The notes under the pieces were generated by a model, which was not told the origin of the DNA, searched no databases, and saw nothing but the letters and a program-made list of their open reading frames with translations. The translations under genes and the position numbers were made by a program. A stretch of 64,000 nt of DNA from Escherichia coli (GTDB taxonomy: Bacteria; Pseudomonadota; Gammaproteobacteria; Enterobacterales; Enterobacteriaceae): the NCBI RefSeq assembly GCF_003334405.1, contig NZ_QOWM01000002.1; one strand, 5' to 3'. Positions 3,944-40,082 of the stretch are shown here, one piece after another; the first letter of the stretch is position 1; each line of letters begins with the position of its first letter.

Positions 3944-4617
3944 ATCGTGAACCTCCCCCAGGCTCTGCGGGAACCCCACTTCCGAACCGCTGCGCACGGG
4001 CACAGAAAGAGCGTGGCGACGGGGTTTGCGTGTCATACGCGCGCCTCGCATTCGCCCCCTTGTTGTCCTTTTCGCATCGGTTAATACGGTGAAGAGGGGA
4101 TCTCAATTACTGCATAAATATGATGAGCAGGCTGCTCATCCAGAAAGCTTCCAGCGGATTTCCAACTTATCGGGAAAGCTGATACAGGTCAAATGGCAAG
4201 CTTATTGGTACAGAAATGTGCTTTAGCGCAAAATTCTTTATTAAATGACTGAAATTAAAATGGATTTTATCTTTAAGGCTAAAAGGGAAGTCGTTAGAGA
4301 AACAGTCAATTCCTGACTGTCATAAAGGTGTGTTAACCCTTATCCTGCCTTGAACTGACGACAAAACCAGCATTTTATACTGCCTTAATTGGTAATGACG
4401 TTTCATGCTACTGTTTTTGCCTAAAATCCATCAGGAGATAAAAAAATCTGACACAAGATAAGCAAAAGTGATTTATGTGATTATGCATGAAATTTCGGTA
4501 ATTTTGATTGATTATGCAGTTGATAAAAGCAGGCCGGGACGATTGATCCAGGTCATCGCCGAATTGAGCTAAAAATGGCAGGCTTTGGCCTCTTTTCAAG
4601 GCGCGGTCTATCAGATT
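3944..4617. promoter_or_regulatory. divergent gltB / yhcC control region, long AT-rich leader
   Basis: 674 bp non-coding, AT-rich, between divergent starts; gltBDF is known to have a long upstream region bound by Lrp/IHF/CRP/ArgR. Individual sites not resolved here. Confidence 0.4.
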
Positions 4618-5547
4618 ATGCAGTTACAGAAATTAGTCAATATGTTTGGTGGTGATCTCACCCGTCGTTATGGGCAAAAGGTGCATAAGCTGACGCTGCA
4701 CGGCGGTTTTAGCTGCCCTAACCGTGACGGTACCATCGGGCGTGGTGGCTGCACATTCTGTAATGTTGCCTCGTTTGCCGATGAAGCGCAGCAGCATCGT
4801 TCCATTGCCGAGCAACTGGCGCACCAGGCGAATTTAGTTAACCGCGCTAAACGCTATCTGGCCTACTTTCAGGCGTATACCAGCACCTTTGCGGAAGTTC
4901 AGGTGCTGCGTTCTATGTATCAGCAGGCGGTGAGCCAGGCCAATATTGTCGGTTTGTGTGTGGGTACCCGCCCGGACTGCGTGCCGGATGCGGTGCTGGA
5001 TCTGCTTTGCGAATATAAGGACCAGGGTTACGAAGTGTGGCTGGAGCTGGGGCTACAAACCGCCCACGACAAAACACTGCATCGCATCAACCGCGGCCAT
5101 GATTTTGCCTGTTATCAGCGTACAACCCAGCTGGCACGTCAGCGCGGGCTGAAGGTGTGTTCCCACTTAATTGTCGGCCTGCCTGGCGAAGGGCAGGCTG
5201 AATGTTTGCAAACGCTGGAGCGAGTGGTTGAAACCGGCGTGGACGGCATAAAGCTGCATCCGCTGCATATTGTGAAAGGCAGCATTATGGCGAAAGCCTG
5301 GGAAGCGGGGCGTTTGAACGGTATTGAACTGGAGGATTACACGCTCACTGCCGGAGAAATGATTCGCCATACGCCACCGGAAGTGATCTACCACCGCATT
5401 TCCGCCAGCGCCCGTCGCCCGACGCTGCTTGCTCCGCTGTGGTGCGAAAATCGATGGACGGGAATGGTCGAGCTGGATCGCTATCTGAATGAACATGGCG
5501 TACAGGGATCGGCGCTGGGACGTCCGTGGCTACCTCCAACGGAGTAG
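4618..5547 (+). CDS. yhcC: radical SAM protein YhcC
   Basis: Track ORF 4585..5547; internal ATG at 4618 gives the 309 aa protein MQLQKLVNMFGG...; CxxxCxxC-type motif (CPNRDGTIGRGGCTFC). Confidence 0.9.
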   Translation: MQLQKLVNMFGGDLTRRYGQKVHKLTLHGGFSCPNRDGTIGRGGCTFCNVASFADEAQQHRSIAEQLAHQANLVNRAKRYLAYFQAYTSTFAEVQVLRSMYQQAVSQANIVGLCVGTRPDCVPDAVLDLLCEYKDQGYEVWLELGLQTAHDKTLHRINRGHDFACYQRTTQLARQRGLKVCSHLIVGLPGEGQAECLQTLERVVETGVDGIKLHPLHIVKGSIMAKAWEAGRLNGIELEDYTLTAGEMIRHTPPEVIYHRISASARRPTLLAPLWCENRWTGMVELDRYLNEHGVQGSALGRPWLPPTE

Positions 5548-31003: not shown

Positions 31004-31633
31004 ATGACAGGTAAGAAGCGTTCTGCCAGCTCCAGCCGCTGGCTTCAGGAACACTTTAGCGATAAATATGTTCAACAGGCACAGAAAAAGGGGTTACGTT
31101 CCCGTGCCTGGTTTAAACTTGATGAAATACAGCAAAGTGACAAACTCTTTAAACCGGGAATGACGGTTGTCGACCTTGGTGCTGCTCCGGGTGGTTGGTC
31201 ACAATATGTGGTCACCCAAATTGGCGGCAAAGGCCGCATCATCGCTTGCGATCTTTTACCTATGGATCCTATCGTTGGTGTGGACTTTCTTCAGGGCGAT
31301 TTTCGTGATGAACTGGTGATGAAAGCACTGCTGGAGCGCGTTGGCGACAGCAAAGTCCAGGTTGTCATGTCCGATATGGCACCAAACATGAGCGGAACAC
31401 CGGCGGTGGATATCCCCCGTGCCATGTATCTGGTGGAACTGGCGCTAGAAATGTGTCGTGATGTATTAGCGCCAGGTGGCAGTTTTGTAGTGAAGGTGTT
31501 CCAGGGCGAAGGTTTCGATGAGTATCTAAGGGAAATTCGCTCCCTGTTTACGAAGGTCAAAGTTCGTAAGCCGGACTCTTCTCGTGCACGTTCGCGGGAA
31601 GTGTATATTGTAGCGACCGGGCGTAAACCCTAA
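31004..31633 (+). CDS. rlmE: 23S rRNA 2'-O-ribose U2552 methyltransferase RlmE (FtsJ/RrmJ)
   Basis: 209 aa ORF with SAM-binding motif [13 protein letters not shown]. Confidence 0.97.
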
Positions 31634-31732
31634 CCGGGAGATTTCAGACGAAAGTTTGAAAGATGCTGGATATAGAGTATCCTGACGCTGTTTTTAACAC
31701 AGTTGTAATAAGAGGTTAATCCCTTGAGTGAC

Positions 31733-33667
31733 ATGGCGAAAAACCTAATACTCTGGCTGGTCATTGCCGTTGTGCTGATGTCAGTATTCCAGAGCTTTGG
31801 GCCCAGCGAGTCTAATGGCCGTAAGGTGGATTACTCTACCTTCCTACAAGAGGTCAATAACGACCAGGTTCGTGAAGCGCGTATCAACGGACGTGAAATC
31901 AACGTTACCAAGAAAGATAGTAACCGTTATACCACTTACATTCCGGTTCAGGATCCGAAATTACTGGATAACCTGTTGACCAAGAACGTCAAGGTTGTCG
32001 GTGAACCGCCTGAAGAACCAAGCCTGCTGGCTTCTATCTTCATCTCCTGGTTCCCGATGCTGTTGCTGATTGGTGTCTGGATCTTCTTCATGCGTCAAAT
32101 GCAGGGCGGCGGTGGCAAAGGTGCCATGTCGTTTGGTAAGAGCAAAGCGCGCATGCTGACGGAAGATCAGATCAAAACGACCTTTGCTGACGTTGCGGGC
32201 TGCGACGAAGCAAAAGAAGAAGTTGCTGAACTGGTTGAGTATCTGCGCGAGCCGAGCCGCTTCCAGAAACTCGGCGGTAAGATCCCGAAAGGCGTCTTGA
32301 TGGTCGGTCCTCCGGGTACCGGTAAAACGCTGCTGGCGAAAGCGATTGCAGGCGAAGCGAAAGTTCCGTTCTTTACTATCTCCGGTTCTGACTTCGTAGA
32401 AATGTTCGTCGGTGTGGGTGCATCCCGTGTTCGTGACATGTTCGAACAGGCGAAGAAAGCGGCACCGTGCATCATCTTTATCGATGAAATCGACGCCGTA
32501 GGCCGCCAGCGTGGCGCTGGTCTGGGCGGTGGTCACGATGAACGTGAACAGACTCTGAACCAGATGCTGGTTGAGATGGATGGCTTCGAAGGTAACGAAG
32601 GTATCATCGTTATCGCCGCGACTAACCGTCCGGACGTTCTCGACCCGGCCCTGCTGCGTCCTGGCCGTTTCGACCGTCAGGTTGTGGTCGGCTTGCCAGA
32701 TGTTCGCGGTCGTGAGCAGATCCTGAAAGTTCACATGCGTCGCGTACCATTGGCACCCGATATCGACGCGGCAATCATTGCCCGTGGTACTCCTGGTTTC
32801 TCCGGTGCTGACCTGGCGAACCTGGTGAACGAAGCGGCACTGTTCGCTGCTCGTGGCAACAAACGCGTTGTGTCGATGGTTGAGTTCGAGAAAGCGAAAG
32901 ACAAAATCATGATGGGTGCGGAACGTCGCTCCATGGTGATGACGGAAGCGCAGAAAGAATCGACGGCTTACCACGAAGCGGGTCATGCGATTATCGGTCG
33001 CCTGGTGCCGGAACACGATCCGGTGCACAAAGTGACGATTATCCCACGCGGTCGTGCGCTGGGTGTGACTTTCTTCTTGCCTGAGGGCGACGCAATCAGC
33101 GCCAGCCGTCAGAAACTGGAAAGCCAGATTTCTACGCTGTACGGTGGTCGTCTGGCAGAAGAGATCATCTACGGGCCGGAACATGTATCTACCGGTGCGT
33201 CCAACGATATTAAAGTTGCGACCAACCTGGCACGTAACATGGTGACTCAGTGGGGCTTCTCTGAGAAATTGGGTCCACTGCTGTACGCGGAAGAAGAAGG
33301 TGAAGTGTTCCTCGGCCGTAGCGTAGCGAAAGCGAAACATATGTCCGATGAAACTGCACGTATCATCGACCAGGAAGTGAAAGCACTGATTGAGCGTAAC
33401 TATAATCGTGCGCGTCAGCTTCTGACCGACAATATGGATATTCTGCATGCGATGAAAGATGCTCTCATGAAATATGAGACTATCGACGCACCGCAGATTG
33501 ATGACCTGATGGCACGTCGCGATGTACGTCCGCCAGCGGGCTGGGAAGAACCAGGCGCTTCTAACAATTCTGGCGACAATGGTAGTCCAAAGGCTCCTCG
33601 TCCGGTTGATGAACCGCGTACGCCGAACCCGGGTAACACCATGTCAGAGCAGTTAGGCGACAAGTAA
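31733..33667 (+). CDS. ftsH: ATP-dependent zinc metalloprotease FtsH
   Basis: Track ORF 31724..33667 (TTG); ATG at 31733 gives 644 aa [10 protein letters not shown]...; Walker [14 protein letters not shown] zinc motif. Confidence 0.96.
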
Positions 33668-33756
33668 GTTCCCGCATCAGATGACTGTATTTGTACCGAA
33701 AACCCCGGGGCGTGCTCCGGGGTTTTTTCTTATCAATTCATACCAGGGATAACATC

Positions 33757-34605
33757 ATGAAACTCTTTGCCCAGGGTACTTCACTGGACCTTAGCCATCC
33801 TCACGTAATGGGGATCCTCAACGTCACGCCTGATTCCTTTTCGGATGGTGGCACGCATAACTCGCTGATAGATGCGGTGAAACATGCGAATCTGATGATC
33901 AACGCTGGCGCGACGATCATTGACGTTGGTGGCGAGTCCACGCGCCCAGGGGCGGCGGAAGTTAGCGTTGAAGAAGAGTTGCAACGTGTTATTCCTGTGG
34001 TTGAGGCAATTGCTCAACGCTTCGAAGTCTGGATCTCAGTCGATACATCCAAACCAGAAGTCATCCGTGAGTCAGCGAAAGTTGGCGCTCACATTATTAA
34101 TGATATCCGCTCCCTTTCCGAACCTGGCGCTCTGGAGGCGGCTGCAGAAACCGGTTTACCGGTTTGTCTGATGCATATGCAGGGAAATCCAAAAACCATG
34201 CAGGAAGCTCCGAAGTATGACGATGTCTTTGCAGAAGTGAATCGCTACTTTATTGAGCAAATAGCACGTTGCGAGCAGGCGGGTATCGCAAAAGAGAAAT
34301 TGTTGCTCGACCCCGGATTCGGTTTCGGTAAAAATCTCTCCCATAACTATTCATTACTGGCGCGCCTGGCTGAATTTCACCATTTCAACCTGCCGCTGTT
34401 GGTGGGTATGTCACGAAAATCGATGATTGGGCAGCTGCTGAACGTGGGGCCGTCCGAGCGCCTGAGCGGTAGTCTGGCCTGTGCGGTCATTGCCGCAATG
34501 CAAGGCGCGCACATCATTCGTGTTCATGACGTCAAAGAAACCGTAGAAGCGATGCGGGTGGTGGAAGCCACTCTGTCTGCAAAGGAAAACAAACGCTATG
34601 AGTAA
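33757..34605 (+). CDS. folP: dihydropteroate synthase
   Basis: Track ORF 33691..34605; ATG at 33757 gives 282 aa [12 protein letters not shown]... Confidence 0.94.
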
Positions 34606-35935
34606 TCGTAAATATTTCGGTACCGATGGGATTCGTGGTCGTGTAGGGGATGCGCCGATCACACCTGATTTTGTGCTTAAGCTGGGTTGGGCCGCGGGTA
34701 AAGTGCTGGCGCGCCACGGCTCCCGTAAGATTATTATTGGTAAAGACACGCGTATTTCTGGCTATATGCTGGAGTCAGCACTGGAAGCGGGTCTGGCGGC
34801 AGCGGGCCTTTCCGCACTCTTCACTGGCCCGATGCCAACACCGGCCGTGGCTTATCTGACGCGTACCTTCCGCGCAGAGGCCGGAATTGTGATATCTGCA
34901 TCGCATAACCCGTTCTACGATAATGGCATTAAATTCTTCTCTATCGACGGCACCAAACTGCCGGATGCGGTAGAAGAGGCCATCGAAGCGGAAATGGAAA
35001 AGGAGATCAGCTGCGTTGATTCGGCAGAACTGGGTAAAGCCAGCCGTATCGTTGATGCCGCGGGTCGCTATATCGAGTTTTGCAAAGCCACGTTCCCGAA
35101 CGAACTTAGCCTCAGTGAACTGAAGATTGTGGTGGATTGTGCAAACGGTGCGACTTATCACATCGCGCCGAACGTGCTGCGCGAACTGGGGGCGAACGTT
35201 ATCGCTATCGGTTGTGAGCCAAACGGTGTAAACATCAATGCCGAAGTGGGGGCTACCGACGTTCGCGCGCTCCAGGCTCGTGTGCTGGCTGAAAAAGCGG
35301 ATCTCGGTATTGCCTTCGACGGCGATGGCGATCGCGTGATTATGGTTGACCATGAAGGCAATAAAGTCGATGGCGATCAGATCATGTATATCATCGCGCG
35401 TGAAGGTCTTCGTCAGGGCCAGCTGCGTGGTGGCGCTGTGGGTACATTGATGAGCAACATGGGGCTTGAACTGGCGCTGAAACAGTTAGGAATTCCATTT
35501 GCGCGCGCGAAAGTGGGTGACCGCTACGTACTGGAAAAAATGCAGGAGAAAGGCTGGCGTATCGGTGCAGAGAATTCCGGTCATGTGATCCTGCTGGATA
35601 AAACTACTACCGGTGACGGCATCGTTGCTGGCTTGCAGGTGCTGGCGGCGATGGCACGTAACCATATGAGCCTGCACGACCTTTGCAGCGGCATGAAAAT
35701 GTTCCCGCAGATTCTGGTTAACGTACGTTACACCGCAGGTAGCGGCGATCCACTTGAGCATGAGTCAGTTAAAGCCGTGACCGCAGAGGTTGAAGCTGCG
35801 CTGGGCAACCGTGGACGCGTGTTGCTGCGTAAATCCGGCACCGAACCGTTAATTCGCGTGATGGTGGAAGGCGAAGACGAAGCGCAGGTGACTGAATTTG
35901 CACACCGCATCGCCGATGCAGTAAAAGCCGTTTAA
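34598..35935 (+). CDS. glmM: phosphoglucosamine mutase
   Basis: 445 aa ORF; active-site region [10 protein letters not shown]; 8-nt overlap with folP. Confidence 0.97.
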
Positions 35936-36162
35936 AGCGTTAGATAACTGGCTAAAAAGGCGGCGATTGTCGCCTTTTTTCTCAGCGAACACATCGGTTT
36001 TGCTGTTTTTTTCCGCAGTTGATACAATGCGATAAAATTGCCCTTGCGAAGGTCATTCGCTTTGGTTAGTATTCACACCCGCTTCAGTGGGAAAGATTAA
36101 AAACTCCCGCTTTATTGGTTGAAGCATTGGTACGCGGCAACTCCGCAAGGAACAGGTTGATT

Positions 36163-36495
36163 ATGTATGAAGCTCTTTTAGTAGTTTTCCTTATTGTGGC
36201 AATTGGCCTTGTTGGTCTGATCATGCTGCAGCAAGGTAAAGGCGCTGATATGGGAGCCTCCTTCGGAGCAGGCGCTTCCGCTACGCTGTTTGGTTCAAGT
36301 GGTTCTGGTAACTTCATGACCCGCATGACGGCGCTGCTGGCAACGTTATTCTTCATCATCAGTCTGGTGCTGGGTAACATCAATAGCAACAAAACCAATA
36401 AAGGTAGCGAATGGGAAAATCTGAGTGCACCGGCGAAAACCGAACAAACTCAGCCAGCTGCTCCGGCTAAGCCGACCAGCGATATCCCGAACTAA
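36163..36495 (+). CDS. secG: protein translocase subunit SecG
   Basis: Track ORF 36115..36495; ATG at 36163 gives 110 aa MYEALLVVFLIVAIG... Confidence 0.94.
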   Translation: MYEALLVVFLIVAIGLVGLIMLQQGKGADMGASFGAGASATLFGSSGSGNFMTRMTALLATLFFIISLVLGNINSNKTNKGSEWENLSAPAKTEQTQPAAPAKPTSDIPN

Positions 36496-36509
36496 AAAGT
36501 AGTATCCGT

Positions 36510-36596
36510 GCCGAGGTGGTGGAATTGGTAGACACGCTACCTTGAGGTGGTAGTGCCCAATAGGGCTTACGGGTTCAAGTCCCGTCCTCGGTACCA
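36510..36596 (+). tRNA. leuU: tRNA-Leu (anticodon GAG)
   Basis: GCCGAGGTGGTGGAATTGGTAGACACGCTACCTTGAGGTGGTAGTGCCC...GGTACCA: long variable arm, GAG anticodon, encoded CCA. Confidence 0.95.
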
Positions 36597-36604
36597 AATT
36601 CCAG

Positions 36605-36638
36605 AAAAGAGACGCTGAAAAGCGTCTTTTTTCGTTTT
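36605..36638 (+). terminator. intrinsic terminator downstream of secG-leuU
   Basis: AGACGCT-GAAA-AGCGTCT hairpin followed by TTTTTTCGTTTT. Confidence 0.75.
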
Positions 36639-37054
36639 GGTCCTGGTCTGAGGAATGGTTGTCAGGTATCTGTATCTCGTCCAGTTGCTTTACTCGTAGC
36701 TGGTACCTTGAAACGATGGTGCCGGTACGCCTTAGTTATAAATTTTTCCCTTCTACTGACATAATTGGCACTTTATTGTGTCAACTCCAGTTCCGGTACG
36801 AATACGGATATGTTTACTTCTCGATAAACCATCCTGCTCCTGTCAGTATAACGACTGATGGCTACGTTCTGCGTAATGTTTAGAGACGCATTGATAATGT
36901 TATTTAATTACTGAGAACGCAATGGCCGCATCATTTAAAAAGAAAAAACTAACAGTGTTTCGTTCTGATATGGATCAGAGTTGAAAAACATGTCTGATAT
37001 AAAATTAAACATTGTTGATAATTGTTTATATTGGTTGTGAACTTGGATTTCTGG

Positions 37055-38680
37055 ATGACAGTATTCAACAAATTTGCTAGAACTTTTAAATCTCATTGGT
37101 TGTTGTATCTTTGTGTTATTGTTTTTGGTATTACGAACTTAGTCGCTTCTTCCGGAGCGCATATGGTTCAGCGCTTGCTGTTCTTCGTTCTGACCATCCT
37201 GGTTGTAAAACGTATATCATCCCTTCCGCTTCGCCTGCTTGTTGCCGCACCATTTGTGTTACTGACTGCGGCAGACATGAGTATTAGCCTCTATTCATGG
37301 TGTACCTTTGGTACAACTTTCAATGATGGATTTGCGATTAGTGTGCTCCAGAGTGATCCGGATGAAGTTGTCAAAATGCTGGGGATGTATATCCCTTATC
37401 TATGTGCCTTTGCTTTTTTATCCCTTCTTTTTTTGGCAGTAATAATAAAATATGATGTTTCCTTGCCGACAAAAAAAGTGACAGGAATATTATTGCTGAT
37501 TGTCATTTCGGGCAGTTTATTTTCCGCTTGTCAATTTGCTTATAAAGATGCAAAAAATAAAAAAGCGTTCAGTCCATATATACTAGCGTCGCGATTTGCT
37601 ACCTATACGCCGTTTTTCAATCTCAACTATTTTGCTTTAGCAGCGAAAGAGCATCAAAGATTACTCTCAATTGCAAACACGGTGCCGTATTTTCAATTAT
37701 CAGTCAGGGATACAGGTATTGATACCTACGTGTTGATTGTGGGGGAGTCTGTACGTGTCGACAATATGTCTTTGTATGGATATACACGCTCTACGACACC
37801 GCAAGTTGAAGCACAAAGAAAACAGATCAAACTGTTTAATCAAGCAATAAGCGGCGCACCTTACACTGCGCTGTCGGTTCCCCTTTCTTTAACTGCTGAT
37901 TCTGTTTTGAGTCATGACATTCATAATTACCCCGACAACATTATTAATATGGCTAATCAAGCAGGATTTCAGACTTTCTGGCTAAGCTCGCAATCCGCTT
38001 TTCGGCAGAATGGTACAGCAGTTACCAGTATCGCCATGCGCGCCATGGAAACAGTTTATGTCAGAGGATTTGATGAATTGTTGTTGCCGCATTTATCGCA
38101 AGCATTACAGCAAAATACGCAGCAAAAGAAACTGATTGTTCTTCATTTAAATGGAAGCCATGAACCGGCTTGTAGCGCCTATCCGCAATCCAGCGCCGTG
38201 TTTCAACCGCAGGACGATCAGGATGCCTGCTATGACAACTCCATTCATTACACAGATAGTTTGCTAGGTCAGGTTTTTGAATTATTAAAAGATCGCCGCG
38301 CCTCGGTCATGTATTTTGCCGACCACGGCCTGGAACGTGACCCTACGAAGAAGAACGTCTATTTTCATGGAGGCAGGGAGGCTAGCCAGCAGGCATATCA
38401 TGTCCCGATGTTTATCTGGTATAGCCCCGTTCTTGGGGATGGCGTGGATCGCACAACGGAAAACAACATCTTTTCGACAGCTTACAATAATTACCTTATT
38501 AATGCGTGGATGGGGGTAACAAAGCCGGAACAGCCGCAAACGCTTGAGGAAGTGATTGCACACTATAAAGGAGACTCACGGGTTGTGGATGCAAACCATG
38601 ATGTTTTCGATTATGTGATGCTCAGAAAGGAGTTTACAGAGGATAAGCAAGGTAACCCCACCCCTGAAGGGCAGGGTTGA
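37055..38680 (+). CDS. yhbX: EptA/EptB-family (sulfatase-like) putative phosphoethanolamine transferase YhbX
   Basis: Track ORF 37022..38680; ATG at 37055 gives 541 aa MTVFNKFARTFKS...; N-terminal TM helices plus sulfatase-type domain; markedly AT-rich. Confidence 0.9.
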   Translation: MTVFNKFARTFKSHWLLYLCVIVFGITNLVASSGAHMVQRLLFFVLTILVVKRISSLPLRLLVAAPFVLLTAADMSISLYSWCTFGTTFNDGFAISVLQSDPDEVVKMLGMYIPYLCAFAFLSLLFLAVIIKYDVSLPTKKVTGILLLIVISGSLFSACQFAYKDAKNKKAFSPYILASRFATYTPFFNLNYFALAAKEHQRLLSIANTVPYFQLSVRDTGIDTYVLIVGESVRVDNMSLYGYTRSTTPQVEAQRKQIKLFNQAISGAPYTALSVPLSLTADSVLSHDIHNYPDNIINMANQAGFQTFWLSSQSAFRQNGTAVTSIAMRAMETVYVRGFDELLLPHLSQALQQNTQQKKLIVLHLNGSHEPACSAYPQSSAVFQPQDDQDACYDNSIHYTDSLLGQVFELLKDRRASVMYFADHGLERDPTKKNVYFHGGREASQQAYHVPMFIWYSPVLGDGVDRTTENNIFSTAYNNYLINAWMGVTKPEQPQTLEEVIAHYKGDSRVVDANHDVFDYVMLRKEFTEDKQGNPTPEGQG

Positions 38681-38687
38681 TGTCGAA

Positions 38688-40046
<1,359 letters not shown>

Positions 40047-40082
40047 TTAATTAACTGATGATGAGCCTGGATTTCCGCTCTC

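Follow-up and report, generated by a model that had tools for sequence, protein, structure and literature searches.

How did yhbX, an AT-rich gene of the Escherichia coli chromosome, come to lie between leuU and argG, and what keeps it there? The question is raised by a K-12-like chromosome segment of 64,000 nucleotides (contig NZ_QOWM01000002.1; hereafter "the window"), whose gene order was taken from the RefSeq annotation. In this report, we find that yhbX and its 416-bp leader probably constitute a horizontally acquired, AT-rich cassette. It is housed in a slot that extends from the leuU terminator to the argG stop codon and whose contents can be exchanged by recombination; we assign this reading a probability of about three in four. 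An earlier note on this DNA, made from the letters alone, had described the layout exactly (a tRNA gene with its terminator, a 458-bp spacer at 36597-37054, yhbX, and 7 bp to the convergent argG). It took yhbX for an old acquisition, probably silenced by H-NS, that encodes an enzyme of the EptA/EptB kind. Below, we examine the slot, the history of its contents, the protein, and its probable expression.

A replaceable cassette between leuU and argG

The slot was surveyed in 5,426 complete E. coli genomes, with window positions 36400-38900 as the query and with presence defined as at least 80% coverage. The flanks occur in 5,426 of 5,426 genomes, and the K-12-type yhbX segment in 5,164 (95%). 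Alternative cassettes hold the slot in 4.5% of E. coli. In 237 of the 5,426 genomes, leuU and argG are separated by an unrelated cassette of ~1.17 kb (37% GC). It encodes, on the strand opposite to yhbX, a 317-residue protein whose N-terminus carries an XRE-type helix-turn-helix (HTH), and the cassette adjoins secG in all contigs found to carry it. The ~270-residue C-terminal region of this protein matched no Pfam, NCBIfam, PHROG or PADLOC family. When the window is aligned with the HTH haplotype by blastn, homology stops at 36638, just past the T-run of the leuU terminator, and restarts at 38687, one base ahead of the argG stop codon. Insertion sequences (IS) have also reached the locus: IS1 breaks the HTH cassette in one genome (L002), ISVsa5, of the IS4 family, splits yhbX in the laboratory strain ET12567 (NZ_CP045457.1), and in an isolate of Shigella sonnei an ISEcp1-blaCTX-M-15 unit is reported to have inserted close to yhbX (PMC9973847).

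A third occupant of the slot is a second form of yhbX itself. Nine E. coli genomes carry at this site what we call the fergusonii-type cassette, whose protein is 69% identical to the K-12 type; roughly 16 of the 5,426 genomes are left unclassified. The reference for this form is a contig labelled Escherichia fergusonii (L093), in which yhbX again lies between secG/leuU and argG. The flanks of the window and of this contig are 96-100% identical, whereas yhbX falls to 55-79%, and no leader sequence could be aligned between the two loci. Over argG, identity is 89-94% in the first 300 bp and 97-99% further in. The left break again falls at 36638; this breakpoint, just after the leuU terminator, is thus common to the K-12, HTH and fergusonii-type haplotypes. 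The cassette of the nine E. coli genomes matches that of the E. fergusonii-labelled contig at 99.1% identity, and in one of the strains, E200086, more than 5 kb of flank on either side is nearly identical to the L093 contig. Together, these facts indicate import by homologous recombination. They suggest a large interspecies recombination tract in E200086 or, alternatively, a mislabelled genome. Between this strain (L100) and L093 we count 0-2 differences per 250 bp over ftsH-folP-glmM and parts of nusA-infB, the equivalents of window positions 31139-35889 and 41188-43900.

The right-hand junction is equally informative. The C-terminus of ArgG reads Lys-Gly-Gln in the K-12 type, Lys-Val-Lys in the HTH type and Lys-Ala-Lys in Citrobacter, and the last two codons (window 38688-38696) specify Ala-Lys in the fergusonii type, as in Citrobacter. 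Because the last two residues vary with the cassette, the cassette junction reaches into the argG reading frame. At empty sites in Citrobacter and other genera, argG is followed ~15 nt past its stop codon by a terminator, AAGGCCGC-loop-GCGGCCTT and then T's, which we take as ancestral. The E. coli HTH haplotype keeps this hairpin and T-run, as is visible in its sequence; the terminator scan did not flag it, probably because flanking A/T pairs were absorbed into the stem. In the K-12-type haplotype, a pattern scan found no terminator-like site on the minus strand from the argG stop codon to 36627, and none on either strand between yhbX and argG. At its 3' end, yhbX carries a C-terminal extension that is absent from the 531-residue fergusonii-type protein, is modeled with a predicted local distance difference test (pLDDT) score below 50, and is translated through a degenerate copy of a GC-rich hairpin found 3' of the fergusonii-type gene.

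Beyond E. coli, the junction was scanned through relatives of argG, which gave at least 17 Enterobacteriaceae loci with nusA-rimP-argG-leuU-secG-glmM synteny. No YhbX homolog was detected in the argG-leuU interval of any listed non-E. coli locus (tblastn, E 1e-5). leuU itself is kept at 90-98% identity in other Enterobacteriaceae. In Citrobacter youngae, C. werkmanii, Enterobacter spp., Phytobacter, Superficieibacter and Pseudocitrobacter, the gap measures only 114-565 bp; such empty sites consist of leuU, its hairpin, a REP (repetitive extragenic palindrome)-like sequence in some genera, and then the canonical argG terminator. The same leuU hairpin is found in the HTH haplotype, the fergusonii-type locus and the Citrobacter and Enterobacter empty sites; it is also terminator-like on the minus strand (36627->36610). 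Unrelated cargo of 1.7-3.6 kb, free of integrases, fills the gap in Kluyvera, Pluralibacter, "Escherichia sp. ESNIH1" and strain RIT691. Among the cargo open reading frames (ORFs) of these four loci, some have N-termini that resemble those of secreted or outer-membrane proteins, and others those of cytoplasmic regulators or enzymes. The argG-leuU junction is a cargo hot spot beyond Escherichia. Published accounts of Salmonella LT2 and C. rodentium give only YbiP, CptA, EptA and EptB, with no YhbX (PMC4013655), an omission that fits its absence from both. The earlier note had proposed presence or absence at this junction as a test of acquisition; conservation there is not universal, with yhbX absent in every other genus among the loci listed.

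The composition of the cassette sets it apart from its surroundings, much as the earlier note had claimed. The stretch 36597-38687 has a GC content of 42.0%, against 52.2% (standard deviation 1.9, lowest 47.5%) in 289 other tiles of equal length. The GC minimum of the window falls within this stretch at 500 bp (36.0%, z -4.1), at 1000 bp (37.5%, z -4.5; window mean 51.9%) and at 2000 bp (41.6%, z -4.2). Among 41 genes, yhbX ranks lowest in GC (43.1%, versus 52.4 +/- 2.3% in the 40 others, of which the lowest has 48.2%; z -4.07), in GC at third codon positions (GC3; 42.1% versus 55.4 +/- 5.6%, z -2.4) and in a local codon-adaptation index (0.36 versus 0.57 +/- 0.12). GC3 climbs along the gene, with in-frame thirds of 36.1, 40.0 and 50.6%. 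The 458-bp upstream region (38.2% GC) lies at the low end of the intergenic range of the window (34-61%). The sole other stretch with a 500-bp GC below 0.40 is 3989-4753 (minimum 37.2%); most of it separates long ORFs, and it probably represents an extended intergenic region with a regulatory role.

Table 1. Coordinates of features in the leuU-argG region of the window and of related loci elsewhere.
Feature	Position	Strand	Description	Basis
Window gene order			kdsD, mla, murA, ftsH-folP-glmM-secG-leuU, yhbX, argG, metY-rimP-nusA-infB, pnp, deaD	RefSeq annotation
leuU	36510-36596	+	tRNA-Leu(GAG); left anchor of the slot	ARAGORN, Rfam tRNA
leuU terminator-like hairpin	36604-36633	+	Final conserved element ahead of the cassette	Pattern scan
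Replaceable cassette	36639-38686		2,048 bp, 42.1% GC	blastn against the HTH haplotype and the fergusonii-type locus
Cassette leader	36639-37054	+	AT-rich, non-coding, 416 bp	Alignments
Putative promoter	36994-37022	+	Weak sigma-70-like match, CTGATA-17-GATAAT, 9 of 12; the only one upstream of yhbX	
yhbX coding sequence	37055-38680	+	541 residues; ATG at 37055, stop codon ends at 38680	ORF and RefSeq annotation
N-terminal membrane domain	37100-37540	+	Five hydrophobic segments, residues ~16-34, 41-59, 61-79, 113-131 and 144-162	Kyte-Doolittle
Periplasmic sulfatase-type catalytic domain	37724-38455	+	Residues 224-467	Pfam PF00884, E 3e-56
Catalytic codons	37745-37747; 37865-37867; 38159-38161; 38321-38326		E231; T271; H369; D423-H424	
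C-terminal extension	38651-38680	+	GNPTPEGQG (nine residues) and stop codon	Sequence comparison, AlphaFold2 confidence
yhbX/argG spacer	38681-38687		7 bp between convergent stop codons; no terminator for either gene	
argG	38688-40031	-	Conserved right anchor	
HTH cassette, E. coli S40	L001:3240-4407		Same slot as window 36639-38686	
P4-like island at pheV, E. coli	L089:1-12306		YhbX paralog directly beside the integrase	
argG-leuU junctions with unrelated cargo (Pluralibacter, Kluyvera, "Escherichia sp. ESNIH1" and strain RIT691)	L007:8336-11127; L008:8345-10083; L014:8336-11920; L026:8333-11634			

Age, relatives and origin of the cassette

Nonsynonymous (dN) and synonymous (dS) divergences were calculated by a simple Nei-Gojobori estimate, the within-species figures being drawn from six E. 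coli strains. Within E. coli, yhbX has a mean dN of 0.0058, a mean dS of 0.072 and a dN/dS of 0.08, and its ORF is intact in six of six strains. The gene is under purifying selection and is not decaying. The flanking genes glmM, argG and secG have dS values of 0.13, 0.10 and 0.05, respectively; because the value for yhbX lies within their range, the cassette is as old within E. coli as the diversity of its neighbors. The word "old" in the earlier note was therefore well chosen. The K-12-type leader, too, is ~99% conserved among six E. coli strains. A 74-residue ORF in this leader (36659-36883) was rejected as a gene, with five nonsynonymous substitutions to one synonymous.

The two forms of yhbX tell of a deeper past. 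Between the K-12 and fergusonii types, dS is saturated (>3 or undefined) and dN is 0.21, whereas the flanks of the same loci differ by dS values of 0.23-0.33 (glmM), 0.17-0.21 (argG) and 0.07-0.11 (secG). The two alleles are therefore far older than the split of the flanks. Searches of 5.8 billion proteins, seeded with the fergusonii-type and island-type proteins (the latter are introduced below), revealed no intermediate alleles; each seed met its own cluster and then K-12-type sequences at 65-70% identity. An apparent gap between E. coli YhbX and relatives of 48% identity or less proved to be an artifact, in which relatives of 50-90% identity were hidden in the 50%-identity cluster of the query. 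We also set aside a 74%-identical fragment (L084, a Logan contig of SRR3359616) as a divergent lineage. The alignment of this contig with window 31055-40408 runs ungapped for 9.35 kb at 83.8% identity, its genes are fragmented, and we regard it as an artifact of noisy-read assembly.

Close relatives of yhbX are found on mobile elements. A relative of 63-66% identity adjoins a P4-type integrase near tRNA-Phe and yqgA/speC (the pheV site). This relative is carried by 455 of the 5,426 genomes; with 44% GC, it is similarly AT-rich. The representative island (L089) also carries an H-NS paralog, an outer-membrane beta-barrel protein, a WYL-domain protein, two large unannotated ORFs and P4 beta/cII-like genes, and the stretch from cII to the integrase may be a variable cargo region. 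A 62-kb plasmid record holds a copy that is 64.5% identical to YhbX and 91% similar to the island relative. All of the pheU, pheV and selC islands in a published analysis carried "YjgX or YhbX" (PMC6174562). The next tier of relatives (41-48% identical) is distributed patchily among Buttiauxella, Mixta, Pectobacterium, Providencia and the betaproteobacterium Microvirgula; those of Buttiauxella and Mixta lie at non-syntenic loci. The enterobacterial copies of the family are AT-rich relative to their hosts, with the exception of that in Mixta.

From these observations, a history of the slot can be drawn. The ancestral state in the Enterobacteriaceae is an empty junction of ~120-570 bp with the leuU terminator, a REP-like sequence in some genera, and the argG terminator. 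In Escherichia, the slot holds one of at least three cassettes (K-12-type yhbX, fergusonii-type yhbX or the HTH gene). Homologous recombination within the flanks, rather than an integrase, carries these cassettes from one lineage to another. The insertion of the K-12-type cassette removed the argG terminator. This cassette has resided in E. coli for about as long as its neighbors have diverged, maintained by purifying selection. Horizontal acquisition, as claimed in the earlier note, is strongly favored by the absence of yhbX from the junction in the other listed genera, by the multi-allelic slot and by alleles older than their flanks; the image of a single insertion wedged in after a tRNA gene is not.

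Two other origins must be weighed against this history. An integrase might have inserted an element at leuU, with the integrase and its attachment (att) sites lost later and the cargo left behind. yhbX does lie directly after a tRNA gene, its closest mobile relative (65% identical) has a P4-type integrase as its immediate neighbor at tRNA-Phe (pheV), and transferases of this kind recur in the pheU, pheV and selC islands (PMC6174562). Two traits of an island are also seen here: the composition is atypical, and the segment is present in some strains and species but absent from others. However, yhbX is the only long ORF between leuU and argG, so that no integrase is present there; no second copy of the leuU 3' end (a 23-mer, with up to 3 mismatches) was found elsewhere in the window, and no terminal repeats were found at the cassette. 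These three absences leave a classical tRNA-island origin unsupported. Further, the breakpoint lies 42 nt past the tRNA, beyond the terminator and not within the tRNA 3' end, and it is common to three unrelated or divergent cassettes. Cargo at this junction in other genera is likewise integrase-free, and transcription of yhbX leads away from the tRNA, that of the island paralog towards it. We thus consider a stripped island improbable. Simple vertical inheritance, with AT-richness due to low expression and a hydrophobic membrane domain, is barely credible by comparison. Its attractions are that GC at second codon positions is unremarkable in yhbX (rank 11 of 41), that the most AT-rich third of the gene encodes transmembrane helices, and that dS within E. 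coli resembles that of the neighbors. Yet yhbX ranks lowest of 41 genes in GC3, a measure that does not depend on amino-acid content, and the non-coding leader is equally AT-rich. Nor does vertical inheritance accommodate the absence of yhbX from the syntenic site in other genera among the loci listed, the alternative cassettes in 4.5% of E. coli, or a dS between alleles that is saturated over flanks at 0.07-0.33.

The YhbX protein and its expression

What the cassette encodes is clearer in kind than in detail. Pfam, NCBIfam, a sequence search of the Protein Data Bank and Foldseek agree that YhbX is an EptA/EptB-like transferase paralog with no assigned substrate, in line with the earlier note. 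The ATG start is backed by the N-terminal alignment with the fergusonii-type protein. Residues 41-459 align with full-length Neisseria EptA (NmEptA; 5FGN). The AlphaFold2 (AF2) model has a pLDDT of 86.8, and its top Foldseek matches are 5FGN, E. coli EptC (EcEptC; 6A82) and MCR-1 (9NWW); the first 22 matches are all phosphoethanolamine transferases. The catalytic domain superposes on those of EcEptC, NmEptA and MCR-1 with template-modeling (TM) scores of 0.70-0.78, EcEptC being the best (0.74-0.78). The membrane domain, encoded by the most AT-rich third of the gene, appears as long helices in the AF2 model. The best NCBIfam matches are likewise phosphoethanolamine-transferase models: the generic domain scores 156 bits (cut-off 500), two CptA models 142 (cut-off 404; the second-best NCBIfam model) and 124 (cut-off 900), two EptA models 122 and 94 (cut-offs 561 and 660), and EptB 105 (cut-off 493). 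Among phage sequences, phrog_24438 of the PHROG collection matches the catalytic domain (residues 191-518, window 37625-38608; E 2e-42), and the GenBank phage set contains no YhbX homolog above ~30% identity. PADLOC gave no match for YhbX.

The residues E231, T271, H369, D423 and H424 are invariant in an alignment of 14 sequences of the clade, and they align with the conserved motifs of NmEptA. Their roles we take to be those of E240, T280, H383, D452 and H453 in the NmEptA structure, i.e., Zn2+ ligands, the Thr nucleophile and the His of the GSH motif. YhbX has the fold of the phosphoethanolamine transferases of the alkaline-phosphatase superfamily (the "YhbX/YhjW/YijP/YjdB family"), and it is predicted to be an enzyme anchored in the inner membrane by five transmembrane helices, with its other domain in the periplasm. 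If it works as EptA, EptC and MCR-1 do, Thr271, activated by a Zn2+ site that Glu231, Asp423 and His424 form, would take phosphoethanolamine from phosphatidylethanolamine; the Thr271-phosphoethanolamine intermediate would then pass the group to an acceptor that faces the periplasm. EptA, EptB, EptC and OpgE already cover lipid A, Kdo, heptose-phosphate and the periplasmic glucans, and the acceptor of YhbX presumably differs from theirs. OpgE is YbiP, the phosphoethanolamine transferase for periplasmic glucans (PMC3818809). The neighborhoods of YhbX relatives give no clue to the acceptor, as the gene stands alone at every locus inspected. yhbX has no established function (PMC4013655). In one screen, its knockout raised a beta-galactosidase readout, which the authors credited to a change in the envelope (PMC4551910).

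How strongly the gene is expressed may depend on both of its borders. The weak promoter match in the leader should be read with caution, given that promoter-like sites in the region are not above shuffled sequence (9 versus 6.4 +/- 2.4), and inspection of the leader revealed no clear ribosome-binding site or Shine-Dalgarno sequence ahead of yhbX. At the other border, argG lacks a terminator and its stop codon is separated from that of yhbX by 7 bp; argG transcripts are therefore expected to run antisense into yhbX. Convergent genes with no intervening terminator are a feature of excludons, and argG-yhbX was scored as a convergent excludon by ExcludonFinder in at least 50% of 58 MG1655 RNA-seq data sets (PMC12288877). 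Antisense readthrough from argG and the AT-rich leader would together keep yhbX expression low. H-NS may contribute. Silencing of yhbX by H-NS, which the earlier note thought probable, is plausible in view of an AT content that stands well above background over 1 kb. In the H-NS papers that the search covered, we found no occupancy or hns-mutant data for yhbX. Matches to the TCGATAAATT-like high-affinity motif of H-NS are not enriched in 36597-38687, which holds 4 of the 78 in the window (~2.6 expected). In any case, a dN/dS of 0.08 implies that "silenced" cannot mean "dead".

Could yhbX nonetheless be a cryptic gene, permanently silenced and on its way to becoming a pseudogene, tolerated because H-NS keeps it off? 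Its AT-richness is that of typical H-NS targets, its promoter is weak, and no Shine-Dalgarno sequence is obvious. Further, it has gone without an assigned function for ~25 years (PMC4013655), laboratories place insertions in its flanks as neutral sites, and strains tolerate IS and ISEcp1 elements that have landed within it or close by (PMC9973847). Against these facts stand the purifying selection and intact ORFs noted above, the presence of the segment at 80% coverage or more in 5,164 of 5,426 genomes, the retention of all catalytic residues, the envelope-type phenotype of the knockout (PMC4551910), and a transcript reported to be enriched under one stress condition. Thus, this proposal is very unlikely. 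A different doubt concerns chemistry: the fold might carry out phosphoglycerol transfer, as in OpgB and LtaS, or the hydrolysis of phospho- or sulfo-esters. An alkaline-phosphatase/sulfatase fold with a Thr nucleophile is common to LtaS/LtaP, PbgA/YejM and the sulfatases, all of which appear in the YhbX fold search at E 1e-9 to 1e-12, and YhbX misses all of the curated phosphoethanolamine-transferase cut-offs. However, the 22 best structural matches are without exception phosphoethanolamine transferases, the alignment to EptA and MCR-1 spans the whole length with the five-helix domain included, and the best family models are those of this activity. We therefore think another reaction unlikely. 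A more speculative idea, which we consider doubtful, would make the slot a diversifying surface-modification locus. Its deeply diverged YhbX alleles (K-12, fergusonii and island/YjgX types, with no intermediates) would decorate an envelope structure that is a phage receptor or immune target and be swapped like O-antigen modification genes, and the loss of the argG terminator would tie yhbX inversely to arginine biosynthesis via antisense transcription.

Counterpoints, significance and known systems

Several points weigh against the reading that we prefer, that of an exchangeable, horizontally acquired cassette encoding a phosphoethanolamine transferase. On the side of origin, the hairpin remnant at the right end is common to the K-12 and fergusonii types, which may reflect a single ancient insertion and, after it, long separate histories elsewhere. 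The estimates of age and selection depend on six E. coli strains and the simple Nei-Gojobori method; the Escherichia fergusonii label of the L093 contig derives from NCBI names of identical proteins; and Salmonella, Klebsiella, E. albertii and the cryptic Escherichia clades fall outside the sample of ~17 loci. On the side of the protein, YhbX scores below every curated NCBIfam cut-off by a wide margin. The Pfam model of the membrane domain, EptA_B_N, does not match it, which leaves Sulfatase as its only Pfam domain. The transfer of phosphoethanolamine to an acceptor is what we infer from analogy with characterized enzymes.

Both the gene and the locus are of familiar kinds, and the acquisition of yhbX, although well documented, is ordinary. 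What modest interest it has lies in the substrate of the enzyme and in the loss of the argG terminator. Among the intact phosphoethanolamine-transferase paralogs of E. coli K-12, YhbX is the last without a known acceptor. Because relatives in this family cause resistance to polymyxin and colistin (MCR) and change how the cell surface is recognized, an orphan paralog that selection maintains represents a real, if modest, gap. There are handles with which to approach it: strains with the HTH cassette are natural nulls, two diverged alleles occupy a single site, a mobile island paralog is available, and the catalytic residues have been identified. As a case of cassettes exchanged without an integrase at a conserved junction, the locus also has textbook clarity. 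Finally, an argG gene with no terminator of its own calls for caution in laboratories where the argG-yhbX and leuU-yhbX spacers serve as "neutral" sites for insertions.

Compared with known systems, the slot resembles the integrase-free "islets" that are exchanged through their flanks at conserved junctions, a general class of locus rather than any particular named system. In common with them, it has a sharp drop in identity at the flanks, several non-homologous alleles on one breakpoint, and an allele shared by two species at 99% identity. The island transferases of the YjgX type at pheV, pheU and selC (PMC6174562) belong to the same clade as YhbX and have its AT-richness and accessory distribution, but the island copy lies beside an integrase, a tRNA gene and island cargo, whereas yhbX in the window lies between housekeeping genes with neither integrase nor att sites. 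EptC/CptA, which acts on heptose-I phosphate, and OpgE/YbiP are paralogs of YhbX within one K-12 family; they are, however, core genes with known acceptors, and yhbX is an accessory gene in a variable slot. With EptA (PmrC/LptA) and MCR-1, YhbX shares the five-helix membrane domain, the periplasmic sulfatase fold and the Glu/Thr/His/Asp/His motif residues. It differs from them in its low identity (~20%), in scores of 94-156 bits against cut-offs of 500-660, and in its failure to match EptA_B_N. Lipid A is the acceptor of EptA and MCR-1, but nothing points YhbX to lipid A. YhbX shares the fold of these enzymes and probably their chemistry, but it presumably serves a different acceptor.

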